Sequence record: LN997803
Reading direction: 5' to 3' (one strand)
Length of the DNA: 38,594 bases
DNA from: Escherichia phage phi467
This document shows positions 27,201 to 30,200 of the stretch, one piece after another. Each line of letters begins with the position of its first letter. Position 1 is the stretch's first letter. Made by a program: the position numbers.

Positions 27201-30200
27201 CATGGTCTGAGCGCTTCGCGCTCGCTAACCATATCGAGGCGGGCGCAATTGAAAAATACGGGCCTGACGTTGGCCAGCAGATGGCGCTGCGTATGTATCA
27301 GGACATGGTTGTAACTGACGAGAAATGCGGATTCAGGCTGTCAGCGATGGGCCGGGAGGGACTCAACATACTACATGACAGCTTCATTGAACTGATTCAG
27401 AAAGACGGTATGCCAGACATGCCGGTTATGCACTGAGGTGGACGAAAATGAACATAGTAACGATCAATAACAAACAGCTTCCGGCAGTCGAATATCGCGG
27501 TCAGCGTGTTGTGACGCTGGCGATGATTGATGAAGTCCACCAGCGACCGGAAGGAACAGCGCGTGCAGCATTCAACCGAAACCGTGAGCATTTCATCAGC
27601 GGTGTGGATTATGCCGAATTAGGTGCGGACGTAATACGTACGGACCTCCCGGAAGGAACATTCTCTAAATTTGCACCATCAGGGATTGTACTTTTTGAAT
27701 CAGGTTACCTGATGTTGACGAAGCCATTCAATGACGCCCTTGCCTGGCAGGTTCAGCGCGAACTGGTTAACAGCTACTTCCGCACTCGCACACCGCTAAC
27801 GGAAATCGAGATGATCGCTGCGATAGCCGCCGACGCTGTTCGTCAACAGAAGCGCCTGAATCATGTGGAAGAACAGCTCGAAACAGTCACAGAAGCGGTG
27901 GAAACCATCAAACGCGGAAATATGCGCGCCGGATATGTCGGTTATCGCCAGGTGGTCGCCAAAAGCGGAATGACTGATGCTAAGTGCCGCAATCTGGTCA
28001 ATGCCTACAGCATCCCAACCGATACGCACGAATTTATGACACCAGATGGTCTTCTTTCGCGCCGGGCTATCGTGGAGCTGGAGCCATTCATGAAAGCATT
28101 TCATCAGATGATGTCAGAGGCAGAGCCACGTGGTACCCGCTGGTATCACCCGAAGATGGGGCTGTTTCAGGTGATTGGTTGGGAGGGTAAATAATGTCAC
28201 TCATTACACAAAATTTCCGCCTCAATGCGCTGGCAAATCAGTATGCGGCGGCACTGCACAACCACATATCCGCCACCAGCGGTGGTCATTTCCTGATTAA
28301 TGTCAATGGGCAATCCATACGAGTAAACATCATCGGTGGGGTTAAAGGCATCAGGGACTTAATCGATGGTTATGCTCTGAAGGCTATCAAAGAAAATTAC
28401 CCCCAATGGGAAGCCGTTGGTATTCAACTGTTAAGCAAATGCGTTCGTGGAAACGAGCTGACGCAAAGCGGCAAAGAAATCTGGCAGAGCATGGTCAACG
28501 ACATGAGCGATACCGTTATGGGGAACATGTAAATGAAAATCCAATACCAGGACTATGGCGCCGTAGCGAACATCGTGATCACCAGTTCCTGCCTGACATT
28601 GCAAAAGCATAACCGCGTTGTTGATGCGGTGCTGTTTAATGTACAGGGGATCTCTGAAAACCGCAGCGGCTTTTTCTGGGTTAAGTCATCGTTGTCAGGA
28701 AAAACACGCGACATCCTGCGCGCCTACAAAATCGTACAGCGGGAGGCAAAGTGATGAAGTCATTCCTCCTGTCCATGCTGTTTAGTCTGCTGCTGGCGTC
28801 CGTCGTTTTCGGTACGCTGATTGAATATAAATTTTTAATGAATTACTGAGGTGCGGGGTGGGCAAGATCAAAAACCCAGTTGTACTTATCCATAAGCGAG
28901 AAAATAGTGACTCCTACGCCGTTGCAATCACCTGCGGTAGCCAGAACTATCACGACGCCGTTCTGATGGCGTCGATGGAACTGGATATGAGTGACGATGA
29001 TGTCGATACCTGGAGTAAAACAGGCTATTACATGGCTGAAGAAATCGAGCGACTGAAACAAGCACTTTCCGCTGCGGAAAATAATCTGATTGATTCCGAA
29101 TGCCTCGTAGCTGAATTAAGCAAAGCAAAGGATCACGCATATGGGCTGGTCGACACATACGACTGGCAACGTCAGCGTCTCCACGCAGCCGCTGAGAAAG
29201 TCATCAAATGGTGCAGACAAGAAGCTGAACACCGTACCGGCGATCCAGAGAAAGCAGAAAACTATGCGTGCGTTAAAGAACTACGCGACGCATTAAATTT
29301 TTGCAAAAGTTCTGGAGACATCAAGAAGAAAGGCCTGACCATCACCCTGCCCGATACCACATCAAAGGCATTCTGGAGCGGTACCGGAAAAAGCGCAAAA
29401 TTCCATCTGGAAACCTATAAACGCTGGGTGAAAGAAGCTATCAAACGGGATTGTGTTATTGCCGGGATCGGCGTGGAGGTGAAATGATGAATTGGCCTGA
29501 AGCATTCACCGCTGTAGGAGTTGCAATAGCGGTGGCATTTATTCTGTATTCGCTTTTCCGCTGGGGATAAAGGAATGTTCGCTCTGATTCAACGTGGTCA
29601 GATATACACCGATAGTGCTGGCTACCCGATAAAAATTATTCGCTGCATAAACAACACTGTGTTGTACAGAAGAATGGATGGGAGAACACTGTCGGTAAAA
29701 ATAAACGATTTTAATGAACTGTTTGAACGAATCAATCACCAGGAATACCGACAAATTCTGGCAGAAACAGAACAGGAAGCTCATCTGAAAAAATTACGGG
29801 CCATGAAAAGGAAGTAAAGAATGAATAAAGCATTTGAACAATGGGTCCACCAGCGTTACGGCAATCGCTATGACCTGACACGAGATGTTGACGGTTTCTA
29901 CTGTCGTGAAATTGTGAAACGAATGTTTGAAGTGTGGTGCCACTGCCGTGGGCTGAGTGTTGTGTGAGGTGAACTTTGGGGCTGGATTGCGTACCTATAT
30001 CAACCTACTGCCGCAACGCGGGAGAAACGGTTGATGCCGTTAACAAACGGATACAAAGAGGAATATGGAAAGAAGGGGTACATGTATTAAAAGTCGACGG
30101 GGTTAAAGAACGTTGGGTCGACTTAATGGAGATTACAAAATGGGCAAGAAAGAACAAGGATCATTATCTCTCCCTAGAGGAGTAACTATTCGGCAGCATA

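Follow-up and report, generated by a model that had tools for sequence, protein, structure and literature searches.

A probable microprotein gene with a predicted membrane helix in the early-left operon of Escherichia phage phi467

Introduction

Genome annotation has a systematic blind spot for small membrane proteins. A hydrophobic open reading frame (ORF) of 31 codons in the sequence record of Escherichia phage phi467 (LN997803) raises the question of whether such a loss has occurred there and, if so, what its product might do for the phage. The window analysed here is the whole stretch of 38,594 nucleotides (nt), and the ORF occupies 28754..28849 on its + strand. A reading of the DNA made from the sequence alone had taken this ORF for a translationally coupled membrane peptide gene of the early-left operon, missed by the ORF track. 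It had pointed to host-killing (Kil-like) and superinfection-exclusion factors as candidate functions, and it had named transmembrane prediction and conservation in related prophages as checks. Accessory genes in the early operons of temperate phages are the usual place of host take-over, anti-defence and exclusion functions. Small membrane ORFs are common in phage accessory regions, and no mechanism can be assigned to them from sequence alone.

Judged by its conservation and synonymous codon variation, 28754..28849 is very probably a real, translated protein-coding gene. We describe the evidence for the gene, the predicted nature of its product and the roles that may be considered for it.

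Results

A feature combination beyond chance

The ORF is preceded by a GGGAGG Shine-Dalgarno (SD) sequence 7 nt from its ATG, and the ATG overlaps the stop codon of the upstream gene as TGATG (28752-28756; Table 1). The peptide is almost entirely hydrophobic, with a best 19-residue Kyte-Doolittle mean of 2.38 at residues 5-23. All three features had been described in the sequence-only reading, and they were found as described. An alternative in-frame GTG at 28751 would give a 32-residue product, and we consider it the less likely start because the SD sequence lies just 4 nt away from it.

ORF length alone is weak evidence, since an ORF listing gave 71 frames of at least 25 codons in 4.5 kb. 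We therefore scanned the entire window, on both strands, for ATG ORFs of 22-60 codons (n = 362). A hydrophobic 19-mer of transmembrane grade occurred in five of these ORFs (four distinct). Only two of the 362 joined such a 19-mer to an SD-like motif and a stop-overlapping start, namely 28754..28849 and 29484..29570. The combination of features at the small ORF exceeds chance expectation.

That the ORF was missed by annotation holds for RefSeq as well. PGAP skips the gene in the identical and related records inspected, and the interval 28755..29328 carries no PGAP annotation in records that are 100% identical over window positions 28000-30000. Other pipelines annotate the small ORF as 'hypothetical protein' (CUW01254.1, GEE68749.1 and GIP93625.1), and a family member in the record of phage LMessi carries the same name (XNS37525.1).

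Table 1. Coordinates of the small ORF, its signals and the genes of its operon in the window
Feature	Position	Strand	Remarks
31-residue microprotein coding sequence (stop included)	28754..28849	+	product MKSFLLSMLFSLLLASVVFGTLIEYKFLMNY; ATG 28754-28756, TGA 28847-28849
Shine-Dalgarno sequence GGGAGG	28741..28746	+	7 nt 5' of ATG, within 3' end of upstream gene
TGA of upstream 73-residue gene	28752..28754	+	shares one base with ATG (TGATG)
Predicted transmembrane helix, codons 4-23 (FLLSMLFSLLLASVVFGTLI)	28763..28822	+	hydropathy and AlphaFold2
Near-invariant juxtamembrane motif G-(A/T)-L-I-E-Y-K-F-L, codons 20-28	28811..28837	+	family alignment
Putative SD/AUG hairpin of window allele	28739..28772	+	would pair SD, upstream stop and AUG with codons 2-7; not conserved
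Upstream 73-residue gene	28533..28754	+	phrog_1001, E = 4.3e-33
Downstream 209-residue gene	28858..29487	+	GTG start; phrog_492, E = 1.4e-17
xis	29976..30185	+	phrog_2917, E = 1.5e-40
cro-like gene	23827..24099	-	divergent from cI-like gene
cI-like gene	ends 24923	+	divergent from cro-like gene
Candidate PL-like promoter	24986..25015	+	TTGACA-18-TAACAT, 10/12 consensus matches; between cI-like gene and first operon gene

The ORF is kept while its neighbours change

We compared 91 related loci from E. coli, Citrobacter, Enterobacter, Trabulsiella and Pseudocitrobacter genomes and from 80 IMG/VR viral contigs; the motif G[ATE]LIEYKF served to retrieve part of them, in the scans of species-representative genomes and IMG/VR. 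Diverged copies detected by blastn in complete E. coli genomes were unannotated gaps of about 100 nt that hold 31-codon ORFs (MKYFLLSVLFGLLLVAVVFGALIEYKFLIGS, MMKPFIFSIIVSMLLAATVIGALIEYKFLVK and MMKPFTFSIIVSLLLAATVIGALIEYKFLVR). The species-representative genome scan yielded further loci in Citrobacter, Pseudocitrobacter, Enterobacter and Trabulsiella. An intact ATG ORF of 28-33 codons was present in the same slot in all 91 loci, which together encode 39 distinct peptides. The ORF is conserved in related phages of gut bacteria. The conserved slot is the early-left operon, shortly 5' of xis/int, and the same operon context was found in Citrobacter, Salmonella and Enterobacter assemblies.

The small ORF is kept while both neighbours get swapped, and the flanking genes come from several unrelated families. 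The upstream genes belong to phrog_1001 (73/74 residues), to phrog_1886 (135-159 residues) or to others with products of 88, 146, 156, 193 and 200 residues, and the downstream products range from 51 to 209 residues. An obligate partnership with the phrog_1001 gene was considered and rejected: the small ORF is missing from Fels-1, a Klebsiella phage and phi24B, all of which possess a phrog_1001 homologue, and type B loci carry a phrog_1886 gene upstream instead of a phrog_1001 gene. In a single case, the 85-residue JGI metagenome protein P0004, a phrog_1001-type protein is fused in frame to the small peptide (...REAKLMKPFLL...); the fusion is either real or the product of a 1-nt assembly or frameshift error. 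The same early-left module with its small ORF was seen joined to at least two xis/int modules (L099/L101 versus L100/L102), the partners being a 390-residue integrase with a 69-residue Xis or a 430-437-residue integrase with a DUF1233 Xis. At loci L105-L107 (peptide P0020, with a name from Salmonella enterica subsp. arizonae), the module adjoins a nicotinate phosphoribosyltransferase gene.

Protein searches extended the family. With phmmer, five relatives were found among 1.84 billion representatives, one of them fused to the upstream protein, and a profile search of 5.8 billion clusters gave 210 clusters at E <= 0.01. Of the 128 sequences gathered by the end of the profile search, 124 are 30-34 residues long. 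The source names of family members are all 'hypothetical' or 'uncharacterised', and none has a Pfam domain. The sources include Citrobacter amalonaticus, C. freundii, C. farmeri, Salmonella enterica subsp. arizonae, Enterobacter cloacae, E. asburiae, Metakosakonia and E. coli. In a public assembly collection the exact window peptide occurred in 486 blocks and two relatives in 1,562 and 465, in each case at the same early-operon position beside various xis/int modules. Complete E. coli genomes seldom carry a member (18 of 5,426). A tblastn search with the window peptide gave no match among GenBank phages, a type B peptide matched phage LMessi alone among 50,697 GenBank phage records, and tblastn with a type A relative gave no match among plasmids. 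Family members occurred in phage and prophage contexts alone. By its sequences, it is a previously uncharacterised family of 30-33-residue microproteins of lambdoid-type temperate phages of Enterobacteriaceae.

Selection at the level of the peptide

For the selection test, 47 distinct DNA haplotypes of the 84-nt core were translated in six frames, and the ratio of nonsynonymous to synonymous polymorphism (pN/pS) was pooled for each frame. The sense frame was stop-free in all 47 haplotypes, had the lowest ratio of the six (0.31), and was the sole frame with consistent start and stop codons across the relatives. One antisense frame is also open in the core. We rejected an antisense gene, as the start, stop and length of this frame vary by locus and its pN/pS is 0.55. 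Among nine representative sequences, the pairwise ratio of nonsynonymous to synonymous substitution rates (dN/dS) was 0.015-0.23 within the closer 'type A' group.

Mean pairwise differences of the 47 haplotypes at codon positions 1, 2 and 3 were 6.6, 2.3 and 8.0; few changes at position 2 are the pattern expected of a hydrophobic helix. Synonymous codons were observed at conserved residues in nine haplotypes: GGT, GGC and GGG at G20, CTG, TTG and CTA at L22, GAA and GAG at E24, TAT and TAC at Y25, and AAA and AAG at K26. Such synonymous variation places the constraint at the level of the encoded protein.

The product is predicted to be a single membrane helix

Hydropathy and AlphaFold2 both point to one membrane-length helix. 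The AlphaFold2 model is one helix of residues 2-30, with a pLDDT of 96.8. Across four variants, the 19-mer Kyte-Doolittle mean was 2.38-2.92, the window peptide having the value of 2.38. Among the 92 distinct 28-residue cores tabulated, no indel was found between M1 and L28. Residues L13, E24, Y25, K26 and F27 are invariant by construction of this set, and K/R2, L14, G20, L22, I23 and L28 are near-invariant in it; single changes within E-Y-K-F were seen in five further sequences. Small residues recur at positions 7, 11, 16 and 20 (S7, G/S11, A16 and G20). The last two or three residues are variable, which we attribute to the GAGG ribosome-binding site of the downstream 209-residue gene (28848-28851) overlapping the small-ORF stop.

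Side chains give the N-terminal flank a charge of +1 or +2 and the C-terminal flank one of 0 or +1. By the positive-inside rule, these charges weakly favour an N-in/C-out topology. With its ORF length, the selection acting on it and a predicted helix long enough for a bilayer, the product has the predicted features of the generic class of membrane microproteins of at most 50 residues. Going by the predictions, it is probably an uncleaved membrane helix.

Start signals and RNA structure

With the SD sequence located within the upstream gene and the start codon overlapping the stop of that gene, the layout is the classical one for re-initiation. A start/upstream-stop overlap was present in 86 of the 91 loci (ATGA in 79, TGATG in seven), and an SD-like motif lies upstream in 90. 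This architecture supports the translational coupling that had been proposed.

A hairpin with a free energy of -15.6 kcal/mol would enclose the SD sequence and the start in the window allele (z = -2.97; one of 200 shuffles was equally stable). The SD:anti-SD helix was pairable in 84% of cells in an alignment of 36 relatives, compared with 47-63% in slid controls. Other alleles folded no better than shuffles at the hairpin site. A conserved SD-sequestering hairpin was rejected, as the 36 relatives gave neither covariation nor a consensus; the hairpin is a feature of the window allele alone or unproven. An RNA element was rejected as well, the 201-nt region folding no better than shuffles (z = -0.41). 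Rfam returned two tRNAs elsewhere in the window at the gathering score and, at E <= 5, a spurious Xist match alone.

Prophage and operon around the gene

Window positions 1..31290 are 98.99% identical to the Stx2f-converting prophage of E. coli 2015C-4136CT1 (NZ_CP027550), in which the tail, head, lysis and stxA2f/stxB2f genes are annotated on the - strand. Placed by this 99%-identical record, stxB2f and stxA2f lie at about 15718..16953 (-), downstream of two tRNA genes at 15054-15204 (-). The presence of the stx2f genes marks the element as an Stx2f-converting prophage. Beyond 31290 (31291..38594), the window diverges from the NZ_CP027550 prophage. It has a mosaic integrase 3' part and another right flank. 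No record carried 28500-32500 as one piece, and no whole-window match was found among complete E. coli genomes.

The assignment to the early-left operon of a lambdoid-type prophage was borne out by a divergent cro/cI-like pair, a PL-like match and an unbroken string of + strand genes that runs from 25070 through xis to int. The PL-like promoter is called as a consensus match alone. The consensus promoter scan gave no promoter-like match close to the small ORF. Terminator-like matches on the + strand were no commoner in the region than in shuffles; from the cI-like gene up to the small ORF there is a single such match, weak and located within the upstream gene at 28612-28630.

Several other genes of the operon deserve mention. 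A protein with a ParE-like toxin domain is encoded at 26604..26825 (+) (PF24732, E = 1e-19; phrog_1525) and is preceded by a 69-residue gene at 26423..26632. A gene of this pair and a 119-residue gene further upstream accompany the small ORF in 71-78 of the 91 loci. For the 209-residue gene downstream of the small ORF, PGAP annotates the last 159 nt alone, as a pseudogene fragment, and other pipelines call the gene. The integrase at 30113..31314 (+) consists of two ORFs in different frames (30113..30595 and 30706..31314). Aligned with the prophage integrase of E. coli O26:H11 11368, residues 1-150 are 93% identical in one frame and residues 152-391 are 100% identical in another, from which we derive a 1-nt frameshift near 30589-30592. 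The split is either a pseudogene at a recombination junction or a sequencing error, and the similarity shifts at 30589-30592.

The operon holds a second unannotated hydrophobic ORF at 29484..29570 (+), which encodes 28 residues (MMNWPEAFTAVGVAIAVAFILYSLFRWG). Its ATG overlaps the TGA of the 209-residue gene (GGAGGTGAAATGATG), and it ends 4 nt short of a DUF4222 gene. An identical copy of the 28-residue peptide, likewise unannotated, follows the DUF551 gene in phage JLK-2012 (L098 1206-1292). The peptide matched no NCBIfam or PHROG family.

Discussion

Proposed role

With the gene and its predicted product in hand, we attempted to find the role that fits them best. The gene would be transcribed as part of the long early-left operon, from the cI-proximal promoter to xis/int. 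Ribosomes terminating at the overlapping upstream stop would re-initiate at the ATG, aided by the strong SD sequence, and in the window allele the hairpin that sequesters SD and AUG would make initiation depend on an upstream ribosome. The single alpha-helix is predicted to insert post-translationally into the inner membrane, in a likely N-in/C-out orientation that would place K2 on the cytoplasmic side, residues 4-23 across the bilayer and E-Y-K-F-L at the periplasmic interface. There it could act as the ligand of a host or phage inner-membrane protein, with contacts through the small residues S7, G/S11, A16 and G20 and through the juxtamembrane motif. The outcome would be an altered envelope function (division, transport, proteolysis or DNA entry) in the early lytic or induction phase; we place the timing there because the operon is shared with xis and no promoter-like match lies nearby.

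On balance, we favour this overall explanation, a real coupled gene whose membrane helix binds an inner-membrane partner. That the helix works through a specific partner, and not through generic damage to the membrane, is suggested more tentatively, by analogy, and we would put it at or somewhat below an even chance. The fixed span length and the invariant polar interface motif argue for specific recognition.

Several points weigh against this explanation. The pooled pN/pS values carry no correction for phylogeny and come from sequences of just 84 nt. The invariance of the motif is partly circular, as G[ATE]LIEYKF was itself a retrieval pattern; the pattern-free phmmer search and the profile search recovered the same motif, with rare singleton changes. 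Conservation follows no single helical face (moment p = 0.91) and so lends no positive support to one binding surface. A signal-peptidase-like site (V18-F19-G20, followed by A21) is present in the helix. At the hairpin, covariation was no higher than in shuffle controls, and RNAalifold gave no consensus in the 36 relatives. Finally, the partner-binding mechanism draws on analogy with characterised small membrane proteins, and the timing of expression is read from the operon layout alone.

Alternative explanations

What stood of the sequence-only reading is the conserved, coupled gene, the hydrophobic peptide with a single transmembrane segment and the early-left operon. The suggested Kil-like or exclusion function gained no support: no match was found in Pfam, NCBIfam, PHROGs or PADLOC. 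By likeness of size and position alone, a role in host killing or exclusion is possible. A speculative further reading, less exotic than the cleaved pre-peptide considered below, casts the peptide as a membrane-spanning counterpart of lambda CIII in function, which would target FtsH/HflKC and tune the lysis-lysogeny decision.

A depolarising small toxin, which is host killing in the sense of the sequence-only reading, would oligomerise in or disorder the inner membrane and collapse its potential. Once the early operon is switched on, host growth would stop or the cell would die, by a mechanism like that of the type I toxin peptides Ibs, ShoB or Hok. The product is very hydrophobic, with three charged residues among 31 and the 19-mer mean of 2.38. 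Its small residues spaced four apart (S7, G/S11, A/V15 and A16, G20) are compatible with self-association, tight translational coupling could hold the dose low, and prophage-associated type I membrane toxins exist (PMC12648545). Pfam and NCBIfam, however, contained no match to Hok/Gef or any other toxin family. A type I antitoxin RNA was not found either: Rfam gave no such family at the gathering score or at E <= 5, and no promoter-like match lies on the - strand beside the ORF. One weak terminator-like hairpin on the - strand near the ORF is at the level of chance (11 found, compared with 7.0 +/- 2.5 in shuffles), and the flanks differ between relatives in the test for a type I antisense neighbour. 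The gene sits within a long operon and not in a toxin/antisense pair, and its strictly invariant polar E-Y-K-F is more typical of specific recognition than of membrane disruption. We regard a toxin as unlikely.

A superinfection-exclusion factor would be an inner-membrane peptide that blocks DNA entry of related phages, either in the early lytic phase, like T4 Imm and Sp, or in the lysogen, where its level would be low. The phage-borne peptide is predicted to lie in the inner membrane, its gene belongs to an accessory, mosaic region, and the family is restricted to phage and prophage contexts. Read-through in the lysogen is conceivable, since the cI-like gene has the same direction and only the weak terminator-like match at 28612-28630 stands between. 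An operon shared with xis is nevertheless not expected to be expressed in stable lysogens, and the gene has no promoter-like match near it. PADLOC returned no defence or exclusion family, PHROG matches stayed at chance level (E >= 0.13), and the known exclusion proteins are larger. This role is somewhat more improbable than that of a toxin.

A cleavable pre-peptide would mean that residues 1-20 form a Sec-type signal peptide, cut after V18-F19-G20, and that a peptide of about 11 residues, (A/T)LIEYKFLMNY, is released to the periplasm or medium as an effector or a diffusible phage signal. If true, it would imply a peptide-communication or effector system in Gram-negative lambdoid phages. The division into a variable hydrophobic N-terminal part and a near-invariant C-terminal part would suit such a precursor. 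V18 and G20 are conserved and fit the -3/-1 rule, with G invariant at -1 and V, I or A at -3, and the distance of 18 residues from K2 to the site is typical of E. coli signal peptides. The hydrophobic stretch of 20-21 residues is more anchor-like, however: it runs through the site (A21, L22) as far as I23 and has no polar c-region. The absence of indels from K2 to E24 suggests a membrane span of fixed length, and no receptor-like gene is consistently linked. We consider cleavage and release very unlikely.

The least probable of these explanations, and a barely credible one, is a functionless peptide whose ORF is a ribosome-passing spacer or a conserved DNA or RNA element such as a recombination linker: the ORF does lie exactly between mosaic modules with differing flanks, its 3' half is well conserved in nucleotides too, and its stop codon is overlapped by the downstream ribosome-binding site, but the synonymous codons at invariant residues contradict this, no other frame has so low a pN/pS, all 91 loci keep the length and the start codon, the 201-nt region has neither an Rfam match nor a folding signal (z = -0.41), and a mere spacer needs no fixed hydrophobic sequence.

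Significance

RefSeq skips a gene that is under clear purifying selection in hundreds of prophage assemblies of Enterobacteriaceae, including Stx2f phages of human isolates. An operon with at least two unannotated genes for membrane microproteins means that the annotation of the early region of Stx phages is incomplete. Its early-operon location and the invariant E-Y-K-F make the peptide a compact, easily synthesised candidate ligand of an inner-membrane target. Knowing this target could bring to light a new means by which phages control the envelope.

Comparison with known systems

Assignment to a known family was attempted with several variants in Pfam, PHROGs, NCBIfam and PADLOC and was rejected, because the matches were at chance level alone (PsbX, Prli42, PhrA and phrog_36728). 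A profile search of the PDB likewise gave chance-level matches, such as colicin A with E = 1, and a full-text literature search for LIEYKF found the motif in no paper.

Lambda Kil, Rac KilR and Qin DicB are division inhibitors, small proteins from the early-left region of lambdoid prophages whose action on the host begins shortly after induction. A related Klebsiella phage has an annotated Lambda_Kil gene in the same operon. Unlike these proteins, the window peptide has no match to the Lambda_Kil hidden Markov model (HMM): Pfam gave nothing at E <= 10 except a chance match to PsbX (E = 0.069), for one relative. The Kil-type proteins are soluble, not transmembrane.

The phage-encoded inner-membrane proteins T4 Imm/Sp, HK97 gp15 and P22 SieA are also found in accessory regions. 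Such superinfection-exclusion proteins are larger than the 31-residue peptide, which differs from them further by its lack of similarity in PHROGs or PADLOC. Arbitrium AimP offers a parallel should the window peptide be a precursor: both are short, hydrophobic towards the N-terminus and conserved towards the C-terminus. AimP comes from Bacillus phages, where a receptor gene is linked to it, and its cleavage takes place outside the cell. In the window peptide cleavage is putative, the hydrophobic stretch is as long as an anchor and no receptor gene is linked.

The type I toxins (Hok/Gef, Ibs, Ldr, ShoB and TisB) are very hydrophobic inner-membrane peptides, as the window peptide is predicted to be, 19-50 residues long and in some cases prophage-associated (PMC12648545). 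The window gene differs from them in having neither a cis or trans antisense RNA nor an HMM match, and in being embedded in an operon, coupled, equipped with a strong SD sequence and marked by a polar juxtamembrane motif.

The closest likeness is to the small membrane regulators MgtS, MgtR, AcrZ, MgrB, PmrR and Caulobacter SidA, which have about 30-50 residues, one transmembrane helix and short tails and are often unannotated. Small single-pass regulators of this kind work by binding to larger proteins of the membrane, into which they are inserted with the help of SecYEG or YidC, which they require (PMC12648545). The predicted size and helix of the window peptide match this class. The window peptide is unlike them in having no sequence similarity to curated families, and its gene is phage-borne and part of an early operon. 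Because the Lambda_Kil, toxin and defence comparisons failed and the predicted features of a microprotein were found, we place the window gene, on sequence grounds, as an apparently uncharacterised addition to the generic class of single-pass membrane microproteins.

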